Of a stretch of 64,000 bases of DNA, positions 1,399-23,498 are shown piece after piece; position 1 is the first letter of the stretch; the number at the start of each line of letters is the position of its first letter. The DNA is from Gammaproteobacteria bacterium (GTDB taxonomy: Bacteria; Pseudomonadota; Gammaproteobacteria; Eutrophobiales; Eutrophobiaceae). The stretch spans positions 384,001-448,000 of the forward strand of contig OZ220696.1 in NCBI GenBank assembly GCA_965116495.1, in the 5' to 3' direction. Below the pieces are notes generated by a model. That model searched no databases and was not told the origin of the DNA. It worked only from the letters and a program-made list of their open reading frames with translations. The translations under genes and the position numbers were made by a program.

Positions 1399-1414
1399 GT
1401 AATTCTCCAGTATG

Positions 1415-1469
1415 TGGGGTCAGGTCGCACAATGCACACTATAGCTGTGCATTGTGCGACCTGACCCCA
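1415..1469. repeat. REPIN-like hairpin doublet made of two RAYT-element ends (family A)
   Basis: TGGGGTCAGGTCGCACAATGCACA, 7-nt loop, exact reverse complement; arms identical to ends of element 19442-20467; TGACCCCATTTCCG tandemly repeated at 1462-1489. Confidence 0.9.
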
Positions 1470-1496
1470 TTTCCGTGACCCCATTTCCGTGCGAGG

Positions 1497-8367: not shown

Positions 8368-8432
8368 AGTGATGGGGTCAGGTCGCACATTGCACATGTA
8401 ATGTGTGCAATGTGCGACCTGACCCCATCACT
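8368..8432. repeat. REPIN-like hairpin doublet (family A)
   Basis: 29-bp perfect inverted repeat AGTGATGGGGTCAGGTCGCACATTGCACA, 7-nt loop, between convergent ligR and ligI. Confidence 0.9.
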
Positions 8433-14141: not shown

Positions 14142-16808
14142 GTGGAAAAGAAACTGGAATCAGGTACAAAGGCAATTAACTCCACTCGGAACGGGCAAAC
14201 AAGGCCTTTTGCTTCGGCTCTGATGCTTGTATGTGCGGCAGGTATTTTTTCATCTCCGGCTTTGGCGCAATCAGCCCTTGAAGAAATAACAGTCACGGCA
14301 CAACGCCGGGAGCAGAGCATCCAGGATATCCCTTATAATATTTCAGCCTATTCGGATGAGTATCTTAAGTCCGCCCGGGCCTTCGATATAGGCGACGTCT
14401 CTCGGCTCGTTCCGGGGCTCAATTTCAAGGACCAGGGCGCAGCGCTGCGTTCAAGCCGGAATTCTTTTATTCTGCGCGGCATTAATGCCAATGATTCCAG
14501 GCTCATATTCGGCACCGATGTCAGTTCCGGTGCAGTTTCAATGTATTTCGGCGAGACACCATTATTTTTTCCCATCGTTATGAAGGACATCGAGCGGGTG
14601 GAAGTATTGCGCGGCCCGCAGGGTACTTTATACGGTTCAGGATCGCTCGGCGGGACAATCCGCTTCATACCGAAAGCGGCTGAATTGGGAGAGTTTTCAA
14701 TGGATGCCAATGTGCATCTTGATTCGATGTGGGAATCCGATGAGGTTGGTTATGGCGGTGACGTTGCGGTCAACATTCCCCTGGTGGAAGATACCCTGGC
14801 CTTGAGGCTGGTGGCGAGCTGGGATGACCTGGGTGGCTTTGTGGATGGGGTCGGTCTTGTACAACGTGACAGCAGCGGCGAGCCTGTCCCAAGTGTAGCC
14901 GGAGACCTTGCGAGTGGATATGTGCTGGCTCCGGAAGAGGATACCAACGATACTCAATCTTACATGATTCGCGCCAACCTGCACTGGGTGCCGTCGGACA
15001 CGGTCGATGTCCAGTTGACCTACCTCAACCAGGAGAGTGAAGTAGATGATTTTTCCGGGGTTAACCCCGGCTTTGACGGGGGGCTGGTTGACGCCAGTCT
15101 CGCTAATTTCCCCGGGTCATTCTTTTCCAACGCAAATGCCTGTAATGGAGGCGTCGCATTCTCCAGGGATTTTTTCACCCCAAACCAGACTTGTCTTGGC
15201 GCAGGCGGGAATACGCTCTATGCGAACAGTGGCGTAACAATCCCTGATGCAGGTGACTACGATCACACCATGTTCGTCAAATCAGCCGGCGAAAGTAAGG
15301 CTGACATTTTTAACGCGGAAGTGAATATCGATCTTGGTATAGCTTCGGTTACATCTTCGACTTCCTATTCGGAAGTCAGCTATTTCAATACCCCTGATTT
15401 TACCGGCTTCGATTTGCCTACCAGGGCGCCGGGGGGGTCAAGTGTAGCGACATTTAATTCATTTTATCCGCGGGCTGCCGGTGTTACCTCTTCCTTTGAT
15501 GAAACCGAGCGGTTTACGCAGGAAATTCGCTTCACGTCAAATGGAGATAACAAGGTCGACTACGTTATCGGCGCTTATTATGAAGACAGGGAATCGGTCG
15601 GCAAGACTATTACCACGCAACCGGGGTTAAGTGAATTTGATACGACCATCAATGTGGCAAACCTCGGATTTCCCCGTGGCAGAAACAACGCTAATCACCC
15701 GGACGTCACCTTCGCGGAAGACAGGCTTTTCAAATTTGAAGATATTGCCGTCTTTGGTGAGTTGACCATGCACATAACCGATCAATGGCAGGTTACCGGT
15801 GGTATACGGGCATTCTGGCAGGAATTTTCCCACGACTTTGAATCGTTAATACCGTTTTGCGGTCTGTTTTGTTCAAGCCCCGAGCAGCCCCGGTTTTTCG
15901 AAGGCGGCACGACCGTTAATGATGCAAAGCGGGATTTTGAAGACCAGATTTTCAAGGTCAACACGTCATATGATATCAACGACGATATGATGGCTTATTT
16001 TACCTGGGCCGAAGGGTTCCGCCATGGCGGCGCCAATGCGCTTCCGCAAGGTGGCCGCCAGGCCTCTTTGCCGTCATTGCTGCAGTTTCAACCGGATACG
16101 ACAACCAACTGGGAAGTAGGTTTGAAAGGTTCTCTCTCGGAGCGTATAAACTATTCAATCGCGGCCTATCTTGTCGAATGGGACGATTTCCAGTTTGAAT
16201 CTCTGGTAATAAATGGATTTAAGGTTGTGCTGAATGGGGCTGAAGCCGAAACAAAAGGTATTGAGCTGGAACTGAACGGCAGCCTGGGTGAAGGCATGAC
16301 ATACAATATCGGCTATTCATACGTCGATGCGGAGGTCACAAAGGATTTCGTCGTATCAGACTATGTTGCCGGAACCACAGGGTCCTTTTTTATACCGCCC
16401 TTCACGGTACTCCCCCTTATTACGGTTTCAGATGGCGATCCGTTACCGAGTGTGCCTGACCATACCTTTGCATTCGCTCTCGATTACCTGCAACCACTCA
16501 AGATGAATAACTGGTCGCTTGCCTGGCACGTGGATGGAAAATACTCCAGCGACACACAATCGACATTTAATCAAAATGTGAATCTGGGACGGGATTTCTT
16601 CGAAATCGACTCCTATGCCGTGTTTAATGCATCAGTAGCACTGGAATCCAATGACAACTGGACTGCATCACTGTTTGTGCGCAATATAGGGAATGAACAG
16701 AATTTATCTGCCGGCAATACCGCAGCAGCAGCCGGCGGCGTGCACCAGTACTATTTCACCCTGCGGCCACGCACAATCGGTCTGTCCTTCAATTTCCGCT
16801 ACAATTAA
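14142..16808 (+). CDS. TonB-dependent receptor
   Basis: LEEITVTAQRREQ, IERVEVLRGPQGTLYG, C-terminal RPRTIGLSFNFRYN. Confidence 0.95.
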   Translation: MEKKLESGTKAINSTRNGQTRPFASALMLVCAAGIFSSPALAQSALEEITVTAQRREQSIQDIPYNISAYSDEYLKSARAFDIGDVSRLVPGLNFKDQGAALRSSRNSFILRGINANDSRLIFGTDVSSGAVSMYFGETPLFFPIVMKDIERVEVLRGPQGTLYGSGSLGGTIRFIPKAAELGEFSMDANVHLDSMWESDEVGYGGDVAVNIPLVEDTLALRLVASWDDLGGFVDGVGLVQRDSSGEPVPSVAGDLASGYVLAPEEDTNDTQSYMIRANLHWVPSDTVDVQLTYLNQESEVDDFSGVNPGFDGGLVDASLANFPGSFFSNANACNGGVAFSRDFFTPNQTCLGAGGNTLYANSGVTIPDAGDYDHTMFVKSAGESKADIFNAEVNIDLGIASVTSSTSYSEVSYFNTPDFTGFDLPTRAPGGSSVATFNSFYPRAAGVTSSFDETERFTQEIRFTSNGDNKVDYVIGAYYEDRESVGKTITTQPGLSEFDTTINVANLGFPRGRNNANHPDVTFAEDRLFKFEDIAVFGELTMHITDQWQVTGGIRAFWQEFSHDFESLIPFCGLFCSSPEQPRFFEGGTTVNDAKRDFEDQIFKVNTSYDINDDMMAYFTWAEGFRHGGANALPQGGRQASLPSLLQFQPDTTTNWEVGLKGSLSERINYSIAAYLVEWDDFQFESLVINGFKVVLNGAEAETKGIELELNGSLGEGMTYNIGYSYVDAEVTKDFVVSDYVAGTTGSFFIPPFTVLPLITVSDGDPLPSVPDHTFAFALDYLQPLKMNNWSLAWHVDGKYSSDTQSTFNQNVNLGRDFFEIDSYAVFNASVALESNDNWTASLFVRNIGNEQNLSAGNTAAAAGGVHQYYFTLRPRTIGLSFNFRYN

Positions 16809-16880
16809 AGTCCTTTGCAGTTATCTGTCGAAGCCGCCGCATCCTTTCCGGCGGCTTCATCCCGCACAGCAAACCAGTTA

Positions 16881-16900
16881 CGATCTGACCCCATTCTACA
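16881..16900. repeat. Solo remnant of family A right end
   Basis: CGATCTGACCCCATTCTACA versus CGACCTGACCCCATTCTACA at 22070-22089. Confidence 0.7.
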
Positions 16901-16912
16901 TGGGGAAACAGC

Positions 16913-18130
16913 ATGAACGAATTCAGGAAAGGCTGGGGTCCCTTGCTGGCCGCAATGGTAGGCATGATGTGCGGCTTGCTCACAATAACCAATTACTCAC
17001 AGGGCTTCTTCGTCGGTCCCGTTACGGCCGACCTTGGCTGGTCGGTGCCAGAGTTTTTCTTTGCGTTCACGATCTCGGCCTGTCTGGGACTAATTACTGC
17101 CCCGCTCATTGGTTCGCTCGCATTGAAGTACGGCATCAAGCGCATGGGTATTCTCGGACTCGTCGGGCACGCGCTGGCGTATGTATTGATGTCGCTGAAC
17201 AATGGTTCGCTGGCGCTGTGGTACCTGACATTCGCAGCCCTGGCATTTCTCGGAGCGGGTACGCTGCCGGTCATCTGGACGGCCGTCCTCAACGGCTGGT
17301 TTGAGAAGAATCGCGGCAAGGCAATCGGAATTACCATGGCGGGTACCGGGTTAGGCGCATTCCTGTTACCGCCGATCGCTGAGTTCCTGATTTCCAACTA
17401 TGGCTGGCGGACGGCGTACCAGGGTATCGGTATCGGTGCGTTGGTGGTGTCCTTGCCGATAGTCGTTTTGTTGTTCAATGAAAACCCGGAAGCGGGGTCC
17501 GGCAAAGCAAATTCGACAGCGCCGGATACAAGCTGGGGAGTGACGCGCGCGGAAGCGCTGCGCGGCTACCGTTTCTGGGTGCTCGGCAGTGTGTTGTTTA
17601 TCACTGTTTTTGTCATTGTCGGTTTGCTTTCGAATTTCGAGAGAATCATGGTGGCCCAAGGATTGGCACGCGCGGATATCGCAGGTATCGCGGCGACAAT
17701 GGGGTTGACCGTAATCATTGGCCGATTGCTGGTCGGGGTGTTGGTTGACAAATTCTGGGCGCCTGGGGTCGCAGCGGTATTTATTGTGATGCCCATCATC
17801 GCAATGCTGCTGATGAAATATGGCGCCCCGTCAATGCAGACCGGTATAGTCATCGGTATCGCCATAGGACTTGCCGCAGGCGCCGAACTGGACATGCTTG
17901 CCTATCTTACCGGCCGTTACTTCGGACCTGCACATTACCCGGCAGTATTCGGCGGCATTTTTGCTTTTTTTACGGTTGGCGCCGGTATTGCTCCACCACT
18001 GTTCGGCGCGGGCGCGGCGACCTGGAATGGCTACGGTATGGTACTGAACGGCTCGATCGGATTATTGCTCCTGTCGATCATATTGTACCTGAGCTTGGGC
18101 AAATACCCGGATGCCCGGCGTTCCCCGTGA
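16913..18130 (+). CDS. MFS transporter
   Basis: About 12 TM segments, WFEKNRGKAIG, GAELDMLAYLTGRYFG. Confidence 0.9.
   Translation: MNEFRKGWGPLLAAMVGMMCGLLTITNYSQGFFVGPVTADLGWSVPEFFFAFTISACLGLITAPLIGSLALKYGIKRMGILGLVGHALAYVLMSLNNGSLALWYLTFAALAFLGAGTLPVIWTAVLNGWFEKNRGKAIGITMAGTGLGAFLLPPIAEFLISNYGWRTAYQGIGIGALVVSLPIVVLLFNENPEAGSGKANSTAPDTSWGVTRAEALRGYRFWVLGSVLFITVFVIVGLLSNFERIMVAQGLARADIAGIAATMGLTVIIGRLLVGVLVDKFWAPGVAAVFIVMPIIAMLLMKYGAPSMQTGIVIGIAIGLAAGAELDMLAYLTGRYFGPAHYPAVFGGIFAFFTVGAGIAPPLFGAGAATWNGYGMVLNGSIGLLLLSIILYLSLGKYPDARRSP
18096..18127. repeat. 32-bp direct repeat, copy 1 (copy 2 at 20474-20505)
   Basis: TGGGCAAATACCCGGATGCCCGGCGTTCCCCG identical at both sites. Confidence 0.9.
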
Positions 18131-18404
18131 TGGGGTCAGGTCGCACAATGCACACCGCCCGTAACTGGTTCCACATTAAAAGGTTTTCAAGGATATCCCG
18201 AAGCCGCAAACGCTGGCTCCACCCAGACTGCTTGACCACTACGAATCGGTATTTACGACGCGTCAAAGCGCTATGGCTGCTGCCTATCGGTCAGGACATT
18301 ACACCATGGTTGAAGTGGCGGAGTACTTTGGAGTCAACAGAACTACAGTGGGCCGAACGTTGAAAGAACGAGCCTCAAGTGTGCATTGTGCGACCTGACC
18401 TCAT
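18130..18404. mobile_element. Non-autonomous internal-deletion derivative of the RAYT element
   Basis: Both 25-bp ends (one mismatch); short left subterminal segment joined to a diverged copy of about 20243-20467. Confidence 0.92.
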
Positions 18405-18500
18405 TCACGCTTTCTTCTCCCAATCGTCTGTGGTGTTTGTCCTGGCCAGTGTAATGATTTTGCTCATTGGTGTATCGGTTATTTATCTATTTTGAAGGGT

Positions 18501-19370
18501 TCAGATTATAAAGATTCCTGCGTCAGTATTAACCTGGTCTGATGAGATGTCCGCGTCAGTGTCAGTATTAACTTGGTCCGATGAGGTATCCGCGTTGGTA
18601 TCCACTTCTACCACATCGATGTTTGCGAAGAAATCCATTGTACCGTCCCCGTCGATATCGAGATCGAAGGTGTCGGGGTTGGTATTGATGTCGTGGATAT
18701 CGGAAACGAGATCGGGTTCAATCCAGCGGTAATATTCGCTTTCTTCGGTAATGATGAGGCCGTTTTCATCATAAACGGGGGAACGGCCGGTGCCGTCGGC
18801 GTTTTCGCTGATAGGAGCTTCGCGAGTATAGTATCCTTCTGTATCCATCTCTCCATTTTGGTTTGTGTCAATCCACATTTTTATTTGATATTGCTTGTTT
18901 TCCTCCAGGCCTGAAAACCAGGTAACGCTTCCGAAGCGGTCAAAGCCTAATTCTATCAAGGTATCGCTGGGATTATTCAGGACAATCTCTTCATAGTTGA
19001 TATGTATTATTCGCTGCCACTCGCCAGGATTGCCATTTTCATCTAGTTCCCGGATTAGTAGGTAGGTCATATTAACCATCTCTTGTACATATATTGGCCA
19101 GGTTTGTTTAGAGATTGGCCCTTCAGTCGTTGGGTCAAAGTCGGTATGGTGTATGTCTGACTCTGGTTGCCCCTGCCCTTCGTACAACTGATAGAAATCA
19201 CCATCATCATGATCAAAGTCCATGTAGAGAGCGAAGCCGGTTTCATTGTTGATTACATCGAGGTGTATTGAGTATTTGCTGGTCAGTCCGAGGTCGTCCA
19301 GTGTATTGCTGCCGGTCTGTTCAAGGTCTAGTGTAAATTCGGCCATGTCTTGCATTGTGGTTTTCCTCAT
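18501..19370 (-). CDS. Highly acidic hypothetical protein with Dx[DN]xDG-like motifs
   Basis: 289 aa, D/E/T/N-rich, DTNQNGEMD, DIDGDGTMD, repeated SSDQVNTD. Confidence 0.7.
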   Translation of the reverse strand: MRKTTMQDMAEFTLDLEQTGSNTLDDLGLTSKYSIHLDVINNETGFALYMDFDHDDGDFYQLYEGQGQPESDIHHTDFDPTTEGPISKQTWPIYVQEMVNMTYLLIRELDENGNPGEWQRIIHINYEEIVLNNPSDTLIELGFDRFGSVTWFSGLEENKQYQIKMWIDTNQNGEMDTEGYYTREAPISENADGTGRSPVYDENGLIITEESEYYRWIEPDLVSDIHDINTNPDTFDLDIDGDGTMDFFANIDVVEVDTNADTSSDQVNTDTDADISSDQVNTDAGIFII

Positions 19371-19441
19371 TGAGAATTGGAGAAATCTAAATAACCTTAT
19401 CTAATGCCGGGAGAATAAGCAAATTTATAGGCTTAGTGCGG

Positions 19442-20467
19442 ATGGGGTCAGGTCGCACAATGCACATCGCCCGTAACAGGTTCCAGATTGGCCTGATCTA
19501 TTTGAAAAGCAGGTAGACTATTAGTAGGATTTCAACTAACCTCTGAATAAGTCAGCATTCCGTAACAGGGATTTTGTATAAATCAGCTTTCAAGGATGAA
19601 CTTATGGCAAGACCTCTCCGAATAGAATTTGCAGGAGCACTCTACCACATCACCTCCCGCGGTAACGCACGTGCTGATATATTTTCAGATGATTTTGACC
19701 GTTATCAATTTCTCAAGCTGCTGGGTGAAGCAGGCAAGCGGTTTGGTTGGTTGTGTCATGCGTACTGCTTAATGTCCAACCACTATCACTTGCTCATCGA
19801 AATCGGCCAGCCCGGATTGTCTAAGGGAATGCGCTTCCTCAACGGCGTTTATACGCAACGCTATAATAAACGACATGCCAGAGTAGGGCACTTGTTCCAG
19901 GGCCGGTTCAAAGGAATCCTGGTAGAGAGTGACGCCTATTTTTTAGAGCTGGTACGGTACATTGTTTTAAACCCCGTTCGAGCCCGGATGGTGAGACAGG
20001 CTCAAGAATGGCCTTGGAGCAGTTACCGGGCCACGGCAGGGCTGGCACGCCCCGAACCTTGTTTAACAATTGACAGGGTATTAGCCGAATTTTCGGAAAG
20101 GTGTGACAGTGCAAGAGCGAAGTATCAGGAGTTTGTTAACACCGATCAAAACCAACCCTCACCTTGGGAGAATCTCAAAAATCAAATTTACCTGGGCTCG
20201 GATTCCTTTGTGCAGGAAATGCTGAATCATATAGAACCGGATAAGGTTTCTAAGGATATCCCGAAGCCGCAAACGCTGGCTCCTCCTAAACCGCTTGACT
20301 ACTACGAATCAGCATTTACGACGCGTCAAAGCGCAATGTCTGCTGCCTATCGGTCAGGGCATTACACTATGGTTAAAGTGGCGGAGCATTTTGGAGTCAG
20401 CAGAACTACAGTGGGCCGAGCGTTGAAAGAATGAGCCTCAAGTGTGCATTGTGCGACCTGACCCCAT
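19442..20467. mobile_element. RAYT-like element with perfect 25-bp terminal inverted repeats
   Basis: ATGGGGTCAGGTCGCACAATGCACA at 19442-19466 and its reverse complement at 20443-20467 enclose the transposase. Confidence 0.9.
19604..20434 (+). CDS. HUH Y1 (REP-associated tyrosine-type) transposase with C-terminal HTH
   Basis: MARPLRI, YHITSRGN, HUH motif NHYHLL, GHLFQGRF, YIVLNPVRA, WSSY, HTH VAEHFGVSRTTVGRA. Confidence 0.92.
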   Translation: MARPLRIEFAGALYHITSRGNARADIFSDDFDRYQFLKLLGEAGKRFGWLCHAYCLMSNHYHLLIEIGQPGLSKGMRFLNGVYTQRYNKRHARVGHLFQGRFKGILVESDAYFLELVRYIVLNPVRARMVRQAQEWPWSSYRATAGLARPEPCLTIDRVLAEFSERCDSARAKYQEFVNTDQNQPSPWENLKNQIYLGSDSFVQEMLNHIEPDKVSKDIPKPQTLAPPKPLDYYESAFTTRQSAMSAAYRSGHYTMVKVAEHFGVSRTTVGRALKE

Positions 20468-20473
20468 TCTACC

Positions 20474-20505
20474 TGGGCAAATACCCGGATGCCCGGCGTT
20501 CCCCG
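20474..20505. repeat. 32-bp direct repeat, copy 2
   Basis: Identical to 18096-18127 (3' end of MFS gene). Confidence 0.9.
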
Positions 20506-20522
20506 GGTTGGGCACCGGTACC

Positions 20523-20915
20523 CTATTGTGGCATGTAGTTAATTCTGAAGGGGTTTCCTTCCGGGTCTCTTAATACCGCTTGATACCAACCATAGTAGGT
20601 TTCAAACGGCGGTTTAAGCATTGTTCCACCCAGTTCAACTGCATAATTGCAACGAGCATCAACATCTTCCCGGCTTGATGCACCAAAGGTTATTAAGAGC
20701 GTGTCTGTTTGGGTATCTGGTTTAGTTAGTGACAAAAGCCCGTAGGCATCCAGGCTACTTATGCCGATACAACATGCGCCTGTTTCGAAGCCTCTGAAAT
20801 AATCTGAACGACTTGCCGTTATCTCTTCAAGATTAAATAGTGTTTGATAATACTCAGCAAGGGCAACCATGTTCTTTGCAAACACATTGACATAGAATAA
20901 TGGATATTTATTCAT
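20523..20915 (-). CDS. VOC/glyoxalase family protein
   Basis: AEYYQTLF, GGTMLKPPFETYYGWYQAVLRDPEGNPF; start MNKYP preferred. Confidence 0.85.
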   Translation of the reverse strand: MNKYPLFYVNVFAKNMVALAEYYQTLFNLEEITASRSDYFRGFETGACCIGISSLDAYGLLSLTKPDTQTDTLLITFGASSREDVDARCNYAVELGGTMLKPPFETYYGWYQAVLRDPEGNPFRINYMPQ

Positions 20916-20932
20916 TTTATTTCTTAATAGAG

Positions 20933-21916
20933 TCAAGCTGATTTTCCGTACGTTTTCTCATACATGTAAGCAACATGTTCCCCGGCAGTCGTCTCCGGGA
21001 AATCCAGCTCTCCGGATTCAGGCATGCAGGTAGGGACACATTTGACCTTGTAAAAATAATCAGGATCAAAGAAAGTGGGGCAGGAATAGCGGCTTTTGCC
21101 ACTCTGGTTATTAACGACACGGTGCATATTGGAGCGATATACACCATTGGTGAACACACGCATCATTTCGCCCAGATTGACGACAAACGTGCCTTCTATT
21201 GGAGGGGTTCTGATCCAGTCACCTGCGGAGTTTTGCACTTCCAATCCGCCAATATCGTCCTGCAAAAGCATGGTTAACATACCCCAGTCCGTGTGTGCCC
21301 CTGCCCCAAGTTGATTGGCAACAATTTCGGATTCCTGGGACGGATAATGCAGCAGACGGCCAACCATCACAGGTTCGGATAAGCCCTCGTCGAAATAAGC
21401 CTCGGTCAGATCCAGTGACAAGGCGAGTATCTTTGAAAGCGTTCTGCCCAGGTCCCGCATCAAATCAACATATTCATTAAATGAATCTTTAAAACCCTCT
21501 GGTTGTTCCGGCCATTGATTGGAACCCGTGTTGGGCACTCCTTGTTTCACATAAGGGTGGTTTTCATCCAGGTCATTACCGATAAGAAAGCCTTCTTTTA
21601 AATCGGGTGGCGAACCTTCGTCTAACGTCTGTGCCTTGATAGGTTCGTAGCCGCGAGTACAGGATGAGTTGTTGATATGAACTCTGTTCTTATCCGCTGC
21701 AGGCAAAGCGAAGAATAGTCTTGCCAGCTCAAGATGTTGCTCCATGCGCTCAACAGGAATGCCGTGGTTACTGATATAAAAGAATCCTGTTTCCCTGGAG
21801 GCTTTATGCACCTCCCATGCCACGGCTTTCTTCGCCTCTATATCACCGGAAAAATAAGGGGTAAGGTCAATAACCGGTATCCTGTCAGCGGCCTTTGCGG
21901 GGGTGTAAGTAATCAT
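20933..21916 (-). CDS. 2-oxoglutarate/Fe(II) oxygenase, isopenicillin N synthase-like
   Basis: IPVIDL, GFFYISNHG, HTDWG, HRVV, RYS. Confidence 0.92.
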   Translation of the reverse strand: MITYTPAKAADRIPVIDLTPYFSGDIEAKKAVAWEVHKASRETGFFYISNHGIPVERMEQHLELARLFFALPAADKNRVHINNSSCTRGYEPIKAQTLDEGSPPDLKEGFLIGNDLDENHPYVKQGVPNTGSNQWPEQPEGFKDSFNEYVDLMRDLGRTLSKILALSLDLTEAYFDEGLSEPVMVGRLLHYPSQESEIVANQLGAGAHTDWGMLTMLLQDDIGGLEVQNSAGDWIRTPPIEGTFVVNLGEMMRVFTNGVYRSNMHRVVNNQSGKSRYSCPTFFDPDYFYKVKCVPTCMPESGELDFPETTAGEHVAYMYEKTYGKSA

Positions 21917-22087
21917 AGAATGGGGTCAGGTCGCACAATGCACGTTGTAATCATAGAATGGGGTCAGGTCGCACAATACACGTTGTAGGTGAAGTGACGT
22001 TGTATTTTGGAATCAGCAGAACTGCAGCGGGCCGAACGTTGAAAGAATGAGCCTCAAGTGTGCATTGTGCGACCTGACCCCATTCTA
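21916..22087. mobile_element. Short deletion derivative of RAYT element with tandemly duplicated left end
   Basis: 28-bp inverted repeat TAGAATGGGGTCAGGTCGCACAATGCAC; 38-bp tandem duplication 21909-21984; interior matches the last codons of the transposase. Confidence 0.9.
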
Positions 22088-22091
22088 CATT

Positions 22092-23291
22092 CTACCCATT
22101 TAACTGGACTCTGAGTTCGCTTACTTCGCTGACAAACATATTGGTGTTTATCTTGAAGCTTTTTAACCGGGCATTGGAGTAGCTGCCTACCAGTTCTGCG
22201 ACGGCTTCCTGGGTCTCGATTAATGCTACATGCTGGCCGAGACAGGAGTATAGGCCGCCGCCGAAGTCCAGCAGATGGTGGACAACTTTCCGGGTCGGAT
22301 CGTAGCGTAACGGATCGTCGTAAACCCTCGGGTCGCGGTGGGCCGCGGGTATCAAGTGATGGACCGGTGTGCCTTCAGGGATCAGGACTCCACCATATTC
22401 CAGGTCTTCTGAAGCATAGCGCATCAGCGTATTGATACGGCCGGACAAACGGATAGTTTCATCGACAGCAGCAGGAATCAGCTCAGGATGATCAATGACT
22501 TGTTGCCAGCGTTGCCTGTCACTCGCAAGCCGGCCGATGACCGTGGCGATGCCATGGGCGGTATTGTCGGTACTGGCCTCGTTGAACATGGAGACAATGT
22601 GGAACAACTCCTGCTCACTGAAATGACCGGCCTGGTGCTGGGCAATGAAATTGGCGAGGAGATTTTCCTTCGGCGCTTCCATTGCATTGTCTATGAGGCT
22701 TTGGACATAGGGAAACAATTCATCGTAGGCGGCGATAATACCGGGGGTAAATTCAGGATTTCTGCTGAATATCTTCAGAAGCCGGTCAGACAGGTCGGCG
22801 ATCCAGGGGGCATCACTCAGCGGTGCGCCAAACCATAGACAAAACAGGCTGGATGGGACCGAAAAAGCAAAATCGTGCAGCAGATCGGTTTCTGTGTCCG
22901 GCTCTATGTTCTGCAGGAGGTCCTTGACCAGTTGCCGGATCATGGGGCGTTGTTCTTCGATAACCGAGGCGCCGATTGCCCGCGTCAATGCCTGGCGGAT
23001 ACGCGTGCGGTATGCATCCCGGCCGTGGCTTAATAACATGCATCTCTTGAATTCCTTTGCCGGTCCTTCAGGAAAGTTCATGGCCTCGACCAGGCCCATA
23101 TGATCTGAATGTAAGCGCCGATCCCTTAACAAGCCGACACATTCCTTATGTCCCAGCACTTCCAGCCCGCGGGCACTGCGGGCGAAGGGCCCCCGTTCGT
23201 GGGCCGACATGACAATAGCATCAAAATCGTCACTGGAGGCAAAGGCTGCGGTGATATCAATGGTGGGGAGTTGGTCGATGGTGAGTGTCAT
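22092..23291 (-). CDS. Cytochrome P450
   Basis: ETIR (ExxR), HRDP, FGGGLYSCLG; I-helix EASTDNT. Confidence 0.92.
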   Translation of the reverse strand: MTLTIDQLPTIDITAAFASSDDFDAIVMSAHERGPFARSARGLEVLGHKECVGLLRDRRLHSDHMGLVEAMNFPEGPAKEFKRCMLLSHGRDAYRTRIRQALTRAIGASVIEEQRPMIRQLVKDLLQNIEPDTETDLLHDFAFSVPSSLFCLWFGAPLSDAPWIADLSDRLLKIFSRNPEFTPGIIAAYDELFPYVQSLIDNAMEAPKENLLANFIAQHQAGHFSEQELFHIVSMFNEASTDNTAHGIATVIGRLASDRQRWQQVIDHPELIPAAVDETIRLSGRINTLMRYASEDLEYGGVLIPEGTPVHHLIPAAHRDPRVYDDPLRYDPTRKVVHHLLDFGGGLYSCLGQHVALIETQEAVAELVGSYSNARLKSFKINTNMFVSEVSELRVQLNG

Positions 23292-23498
23292 GAGACTCCT
23301 GTGGATACCTCTGTTTAAGCCCGTTTAACCGACTGCTATTTTAGCAGGATACAGAGTCTTCCAATCATAATTATTGTTTACAAGTGATGATTATTTGTTA
23401 TGCATCCCCGTAATCGCCCGGGCTTACTGGTAGCTGGTGATAACGCTCATGGCCGATAACTTTTTCGTCATCGTGCCGTCTCCGGTAAGAAATATGGG

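Follow-up and report, generated by a model that had tools for sequence, protein, structure and literature searches.

Organization of the locus

We analyzed a 64,000-nucleotide stretch of a gammaproteobacterial genome (positions 384,001 to 448,000 of contig OZ220696.1, assembly GCA_965116495.1; hereafter, the window), which belongs to a 4.34-Mb single-contig genome referred to here as G000. The locus of interest lies within an operon (window positions 14142-23291) that contains genes for a TonB receptor, a major facilitator superfamily (MFS) transporter, a glyoxalase, a 2-oxoglutarate (2OG) dioxygenase and a cytochrome P450. Between the MFS and glyoxalase genes is a same-orientation array of pieces of a TIRtron, an element bounded by terminal inverted repeats (TIRs), in which an internally deleted derivative is followed by a passenger gene and an intact element (Table 1). 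In the derivative, the left ~50 bp of the element are fused to its last ~225 bp; over 227 nt, it shares 91% identity with the intact copy. The right-end remnant preceding the MFS gene was also present in three related genomes (G022, G015 and G016).

Table 1. Features of the MFS-glyoxalase region (window coordinates; ORF, open reading frame)
Feature	Position	Strand	Evidence
Right TIR end remnant with tail, before MFS leader	16881..16908 (right end 16881-16898)	+	89% to family D4 over 28 nt
MFS transporter gene, 405 aa, stop from left TIR tail	16913..18130	+	MFS_1, E 4e-33
Left copy of 32-bp repeat, last MFS coding bases	18096..18127	+	Sequence identity
Internally deleted TIRtron derivative with tails (275-bp body, 18130-18404)	18128..18407	+	Alignment to intact element
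Passenger ORF for an acidic protein of 284-289 aa, with a 39-bp tandem repeat inside	18501..19370	-	ORF
Intact TIRtron with right tail	19442..20471 (TIR to TIR, 19442-20467)	+	25-bp perfect TIRs, GGGGWSAS
TIRYT transposase, 276 aa, HUH H60-Y-H62, Y119, C-terminal helix-turn-helix	19604..20434	+	Domain search, alignment
Right copy of MFS end, 34 nt identical to G022 empty allele	20472..20505	+	
Glyoxalase-like and 2OG-Fe(II) dioxygenase genes; ancestry within G022/G015 cluster, unlike left flank	20523..21916	-	
Miniature TIR element; 38-bp tandem copy of left end and flank, 7-bp tandem copy of right tail	21909..22095	+	

An exact 32-bp repeat and an empty allele

As reported in the initial annotation, the final 32 coding bases of the MFS gene recur exactly behind the intact element (18096-18127 = 20474-20505). 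This repeat is unique to the site: no third copy could be found in G000 even when 8 mismatches were allowed, and with only two copies in the genome, a multi-copy repeat or one resembling repetitive extragenic palindromic (REP) sequences was ruled out. The copies are separated by 2,346 bp comprising the 275-bp derivative, the acidic ORF and the intact element; the left copy stops 2 nt short of a TIR, and the right copy begins 6 nt past one. It should be noted that exact repeats of at least 32 nt spaced 0.1-3 kb apart are not rare in G000 (146 cases, many of them clustered). Among all left-right TIR pairs 0.2-45 kb apart in this genome, the present one is the sole case with a flank repeat of at least 10 nt.

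Eleven related loci covered the operon. The native MFS end was retained in seven of them (G022, G015, G019, G008, G014, G007 and G005), a left TIR stood at the MFS end in two (G016 and G010) and the MFS 3' end was missing from one (G001), with G002 left without assessment of this end. Thus, an empty-site allele, suggested earlier as something to look for in relatives, does exist, and G022 provides it exactly: a single identical 32-mer is followed by the native stop and then by the glyoxalase gene. Measured against G022, the right copy extends to 34 nt (20472-20505) and the left copy is mismatched at 18095. The stop codon of the MFS gene in G000 (TGA, 18128-18130) comes from the tail of the left TIR, two codons early, and TGG takes the place of the native stop TAG in the right copy. 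The block is a real insertion relative to an existing empty allele.

Identity of the element and its passenger

The transposase scored 44.8 bits against Pfam Y1_Tnp (cut-off, 23), and H60, H62 and Y119 were invariant in all 21 aligned transposase sequences (nine loci were excluded from the alignment, one owing to an internal stop). Its best fold match and nearest solved structure was TnpAREP (PDB 4er8), whose YIxxNP tyrosine, presumably the catalytic one, aligned with Y119. A C-terminal helix-turn-helix was indicated by HTH_28 (E = 0.006) and HTH_7 (E = 0.003), each below cut-off; HTH_23 and HTH_28 each matched 7 of the 21 relatives, and helices were predicted at residues 241-275. The NCBIfam RAYT equivalog NF047646 gave 72.2 bits and did not reach its cut-off of 80. 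The perfect 25-bp TIRs (19442-19466 and 20443-20467) contain GGGGTCAG, which carries the GGGGWSAS motif, and have a folding energy of just -1.2 kcal/mol without a REP-type hairpin. At the right tail, the minus strand has a GTAG, but tails differ among copies. There are 110 TIR copies in G000, mostly paired as miniature elements of ~85 bp, together with this sole intact transposase copy, and the same TIR family is present in G014, G019, G018, G020 and others.

The available text of Di Nocera et al. (2013; PMC3733652) describes TIRtrons as TIR-flanked elements with a Y1/HUH transposase and the GGGGWSAS motif, and that of Quentin et al. (2018; PMC6006769) presents TIRYTs as TnpA-Y1 subclass 2.1, the second-largest subclass among RAYT-like HUH enzymes. 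Judged by its sequence, the element studied here is a TIRtron that matches the published description of subclass 2.1. The earlier view of an element built around a RAYT was therefore correct as to a Y1/HUH element, but the enzyme is a TIRYT and not a REP-associated RAYT, given its equivalog score and TIRs without hairpins. As a side observation, transposase contigs (window 19441-20281) of runs X2-X5 were roughly twice as deep as the passenger contig and showed two differences from G000, with a break near 19874 in X4. These features possibly reflect a second near-identical copy or a co-occurring strain; depth does not give a copy number.

For the acidic protein, there was no Pfam or NCBIfam family above cut-off and no Atlas match. 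Four homologues were found at 41-53% identity, and the RTX Ca-binding and serralysin C-terminal repeats of one of them suggest a secreted Ca-binding protein. No TIR of this family was found within 6 kb around the homologue in G021, nor was the acidic gene seen between TIRs in any other instance in the 41 genomes searched and the related operon loci; it is therefore considered a passenger at this site only. Mobilization of the gene as cargo, as proposed in the initial annotation, is therefore a suggestion drawn from a single site.

Footprints of related elements

The set of 153 related loci included 77 with TIRs, 48 with none by the test applied and 28 that were too short; flanks were usable in 74. 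The longest flank repeat was at most 9 nt in 71 of these 74, the others having 12, 14 and 24 nt (the last from a mis-picked end), and did not exceed 10 nt at any of the 74 TIR clusters of G000. Filled and empty sites of close relatives could be compared in 11 cases. Clean junctions were obtained in two of them, between relatives 94-99% identical, and showed a 7-bp repeat with one mismatch (L317) and a 6-bp repeat (L312); the other nine had no clean junction, or another TIR family or a remnant at the site, and two further searches gave no usable ortholog. No repeat longer than 7 nt was found in the 11 comparisons. In addition, L065 compared with G000 showed a 7-bp repeat (at most 3 in G014 at the same site), and end duplications, that is, partial end copies of 7-42 nt, were found beside 15 of 112 ends. 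The empty sites of G000 miniature elements in G022, G015, G016 and G005 had a background identity (mostly 70-87%) too low for junctions, and two further duplicated flanks in G000 (near 4,234,070 and 3,654,640) were multi-copy repeats and uninformative.

The usual footprint of the family is 0-7 bp, and a long target duplication is not a family trait. Inspection of other copies for long duplications, a check proposed at the outset, turned up none comparable at the 74 related elements or at other end pairs of G000. The 6-7-bp repeats in two of the 11 close comparisons also show that the absence of duplication, given in the initial annotation as normal for Y1 HUH transposition, is not the baseline here. 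A derivative-passenger-transposase block at a second site was found neither in the 41 genomes nor, by cover, in runs X6, X7, X10 and X14.

Arrangements of the operon in related genomes

The operon was 94-98% identical between G000 and G022, G015 and G016, compared with a genome background of mostly 70-87%, and has therefore probably been exchanged horizontally. Four genomes (G000, G016, G010 and G001) carry an intact element at this operon, and its position is different in each. In G016, the MFS gene is followed by a left end belonging to the same derivative and by a VapBC pair, then by a right end at the P450 end, the P450 gene, two other genes, the element, the dioxygenase gene, a mini element and, finally, behind a right end, ~50 nt of the P450 start repeated, with 3 positions different from the intact P450 upstream. 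Here, the VapB/VapC (PIN) pair lies within the ends of the same derivative (L014:12923-13583) and replaces the acidic gene. The order in G010 is a truncated element, stacked right ends, the MFS gene, the element and then a duplication with 4.4-kb spacing, whose copies are 90-96% alike and each follow a right end. G001 has scrambled MFS 5' pieces, present twice around a mini element, followed by MFS 1-174, the element, 330 bp of other DNA, a mini element and the P450 gene. Orientation was uniform: in five loci, 17 of 17 right-end interiors faced the same direction. The locus is a hotspot at which the element remains in four genomes, in a single orientation and bracketing different passengers.

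Several other arrangements were noted. A 180-bp segment upstream of the P450 start (window 23287-23466) is skipped by an X10 contig and is probably a later insertion, and the second P450 start in G016 is joined directly to the next gene. Outside the operon, a left and a right TIR enclose a 27-kb stretch (G000:C1:2498552-2525628) with a gene for an 8,344-aa protein of repetitive sequence, and only a short TIR element occupies that site in G022 and G015. Shorter TIR-bracketed stretches (0.4-3.5 kb) with small genes were observed at L022 (G020), where the genes resemble an addiction-module pair, at L068 (G014) and L097 (G019), and at G000:C1:4254991-4258512.

Miniature elements and their tails

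Forty-seven cross-genome pairs of miniature elements at shared sites, which are not independent of each other, were compared. The interior was inverted in 12 pairs and had the same orientation in 13; in another 14 it was unrelated or ambiguous, and 8 were too short, so that 12 of the 25 resolvable pairs were inverted (for example, L063, L091, L096, L309/L320 and L311/L323). The L096 interior was identical over 40 nt between flanks of 88-92% identity, and two of the six minis compared between G018 and G020 (flanks mostly 94-98% identical) were inverted, both with altered tails. Passive flipping of hairpin-flanked spacers is common, and the inversion of minis may possibly have arisen in this way.

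Tails measured ~3-8 nt and were usually mirror images inside one copy and different between copies. The L312 tail is identical to the target sequence, and the L319 tail to one arm of a different TIR family. At L312, L319, L315/L337, L298/L343, L013 (before the MFS gene) and L098, the target appears to be the source of the tails, and sister TIR families (GGGGACAG- and GGGGTCAGAGTAA-type) are present or nested at these same sites. Two short hairpin-like minis of the same TIR family were also observed in the window (1414-1470 and 8372-8428), both at sites common to G019. Comparison of L073 (G014) with G000:C1:2133282 placed another mini element in a hairpin loop of a gene that we take, from its motifs, to be that of RNase P RNA.

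Origin of the repeat

We consider it most probable (roughly 0.6) that the 32-34-bp repeat is what remains of the 3' end of a second MFS copy, likely trimmed beside the right end of the element and likely fused to an intact allele. In one possible order of events, a left end would first have joined just ahead of an MFS stop and supplied the new stop that is now seen at this junction. Second, a right end would have stood before an MFS start, a state that is observed, and all but 34 nt of that MFS copy would then have been lost by deletion or template switching between the leader and a sequence resembling it at 8/10 positions, located 34 nt ahead of the left-junction site. Third, recombination via directly repeated element sequences, or inside the 32-mer, would have joined the left allele to a G022/G015-like right allele and produced the mosaic found in G000. 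The end junctions were probably made by the transposase.

Three lines of evidence favor such a residue of a second MFS copy, namely the history of the left junction, the switch of ancestry and the look-alike match to the leader. The left junction and the internal join of the derivative are common to G000 and G016, in which the cargo differs. Since this junction is shared, and the derivative and intact element agree at 91% as compared with 97% identity between the intact elements of G000 and G016, the left end would have its own, older history. When informative sites were compared among G000, G022 and G015, G000 stood apart at 87 of 131 on the left and at 17 of 45 on the right (Fisher p=0.0014), which points to a switch of ancestry across the block. 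Full right ends precede the MFS start in G010 and G001, and a contig of runs X10 (at a depth of 26) and X14 (at a depth of 2) connects a full right TIR with the MFS leader, although the intervening letters are not known. The 10 nt that follow the pre-MFS right-end tail match the 10 nt after the right end of the intact element at 8/10 positions, and a match of this quality to the leader 10-mer occurs at 2 of 1,225 positions of the G022 MFS gene, the right junction among them. The same pattern recurs in the arrangements of G016, G010 and G001 described above. The uniform orientation of the right-end interiors and the lack of long flank repeats at other elements also favor this reading.

A target preference for the leader 10-mer was considered and rejected: exact or near-exact matches were limited to this operon (twice in G000, and in G015, G016 and G022) and one in G008, and the scan gave five matches with two mismatches elsewhere.

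Several observations weigh against a second MFS copy. Both 32-mers are identical to each other and to G022, and the G016 allele with the same left junction differs at 4 of 32 positions, one of them 2 nt from the junction. Identical 32-mers would then have to be explained by chance (~9%, as estimated from 92.6% identity across the 3' half of the MFS gene), by conversion, by crossing over within the repeat or by two insertions at the same nucleotide. The sister genomes are likewise mosaic in this 3' half, which blurs the ancestry switch, and the informative sites are linked, so the above p value overstates the difference. The right side of G016 is rearranged, and its state without the duplication is weak evidence. 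Finally, an intact element directly before a full MFS gene and then the glyoxalase gene was seen in no genome. The initial annotation took the block for a single insertion. An insertion relative to the empty allele is confirmed, but one event is not shown, because G016 shares the left junction with other cargo and the flanks differ in ancestry.

A possible but less likely alternative, also raised initially, is the integration of a circle by short homology. In a donor with a right end joined 34 nt before the site, the joining of a left end to the site would have released a circle of derivative, passenger, element and 34 nt of the MFS gene, which then entered an empty MFS allele by a crossover in the 32-mer; the repeat would be a captured flank serving as homology, like the 3'-CS duplications of ISCR elements, for which the available text of PMC7707992 provides a model as precedent. 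Such a crossover accounts for two identical 32-mers with a mismatch immediately outside, and a contig of run X5 links 20473 back to 18096, which is the junction predicted for a circle or a tandem. However, a single crossover would leave flanks of one ancestry, and the flanks differ. The X5 joint, not shown in X2, X3 or X4, comes from one contig of low depth and may be an assembly path, since words of 31 letters, the probable size for these contigs, cannot bridge a 32-nt repeat. Moreover, 32 bp is near the lower limit for RecA, which also counts against integration by this route.

Slightly less likely still, and unlikely overall, is a one-step insertion with a long target duplication, in which opposite strands would be attacked by the two ends in a partly independent manner, with a spacing that is usually 6-7 nt and here 32-34 nt. 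It would be consistent with identical copies abutting both ends, a clean empty allele, the short repeats of L317, L312 and L065 and the end duplications of 7-42 nt. Against it stand the short flank repeats of the relatives and of the G000 clusters, the absence of anything above 7 nt in the close comparisons and the absence of the block from a second site among the 41 genomes, and it would leave both the ancestry switch and the 8/10 leader match as coincidences. The target also has no significant hairpin (z -0.33 and -0.93), so a target hairpin was rejected. Misassembly at the repeat is very improbable: nothing direct speaks for it beyond the use of contigs instead of raw reads, and against it G000 is one contig, the left junction is independently present in G016, an X2-X4 passenger contig joins derivative and element (18371-19470, 0 differences), another X2-X4 contig begins at 20476 within the repeat, as expected of two real copies, and X5, from a separate study, has both the right-end/32-mer and the 32-mer/left-end junctions.

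Relationship to known systems

The closest likeness is to the TIRtrons and TIRYTs of PMC3733652 and PMC6006769, which share a RAYT-like Y1 enzyme with a C-terminal helix-turn-helix, long GGGGWSAS TIRs, genome-wide TIR dimers and the lack of REP hairpins. Neither insertion sites nor duplications, passengers or inversions are described in the available text of these papers (that of PMC3733652 mentions no 'target site' or 'duplication', and that of PMC6006769 no 'passenger'), whereas the present loci include empty alleles, repeats of 6-7 bp, arrays that bracket passengers and minis in inverted form. The literature searched contained nothing beyond these two papers on TIRYT mechanism, inversion, duplication or cargo, and no experiment was found in it.

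RAYT/REPIN systems (TnpAREP, 4er8; Bertels et al., 2017, PMC5581495), as far as the available text goes, are similar in having one transposase gene at a single locus and many non-autonomous repeats. They differ from the present element, which falls below the NCBIfam RAYT cut-off, has a non-folding TIR as its repeat and carries a gene that shifts position within an operon. In comparison with IS26, which uses a DDE (IS6) transposase, our element has a Y1/HUH fold, and the joining of existing copies by a TIRYT is an analogy. The translocatable units of IS26, according to the available text of PMC4196232 and PMC4676283, resemble the array in having direct-orientation copies that are interspersed with passengers and accumulate beside existing copies. 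ISCR1/IS91 elements likewise combine an HUH element with a passenger bounded by duplicated host sequence and offer a route via circles and homologous recombination, but ISCRs are described in the available text of PMC7707992 as having no TIRs and as using oriIS/terIS rolling-circle transposition, whereas the present element has TIRs, a Y1 enzyme and a duplication of 32-34 bp only. In the available text on Dup-IS-Dup structures and deletions adjacent to insertion sequences (Ngan et al., 2024, PMC11708052), an element splits duplicated host DNA without a true target-site duplication, and adjacent deletions and inter-copy recombination alter the flanks. Those cases involve IS481/IS5 elements and a 60-kb duplication, in contrast with an HUH element and a trimmed 34-nt residue here.

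Implications for TIRtron biology

The rearrangements of the locus and the inversions of miniature elements are of more interest than the repeat itself, and neither behavior was found in the available text of PMC3733652 and PMC6006769 or in the other literature searched. As a tentative suggestion, TIRYT may be an HUH recombinase for end joining that mobilizes the TIR ends one by one, with a preference for sites already holding a TIR. If true, this would explain the variable duplications (6-7 bp, 34 bp and kilobases), the inversion and re-insertion of mini cassettes and the tails copied from the target. The element would then also be a platform for gene capture that resides at one operon and exchanges its passengers there, as a Y1 counterpart to capture by IS26 and ISCR.

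How a single-strand transposase uses inverted ends is a mechanistic question raised by TIRYTs. This genus offers not only empty alleles and exact junctions but also a series of rearrangements within one operon, and thereby defined substrates for a first TIRYT assay. The 32-bp repeat may serve as a warning that a long flanking repeat need not mean a target duplication. If the enzyme does make these junctions, TIRtrons would be an unrecognized route of gene gain and loss.

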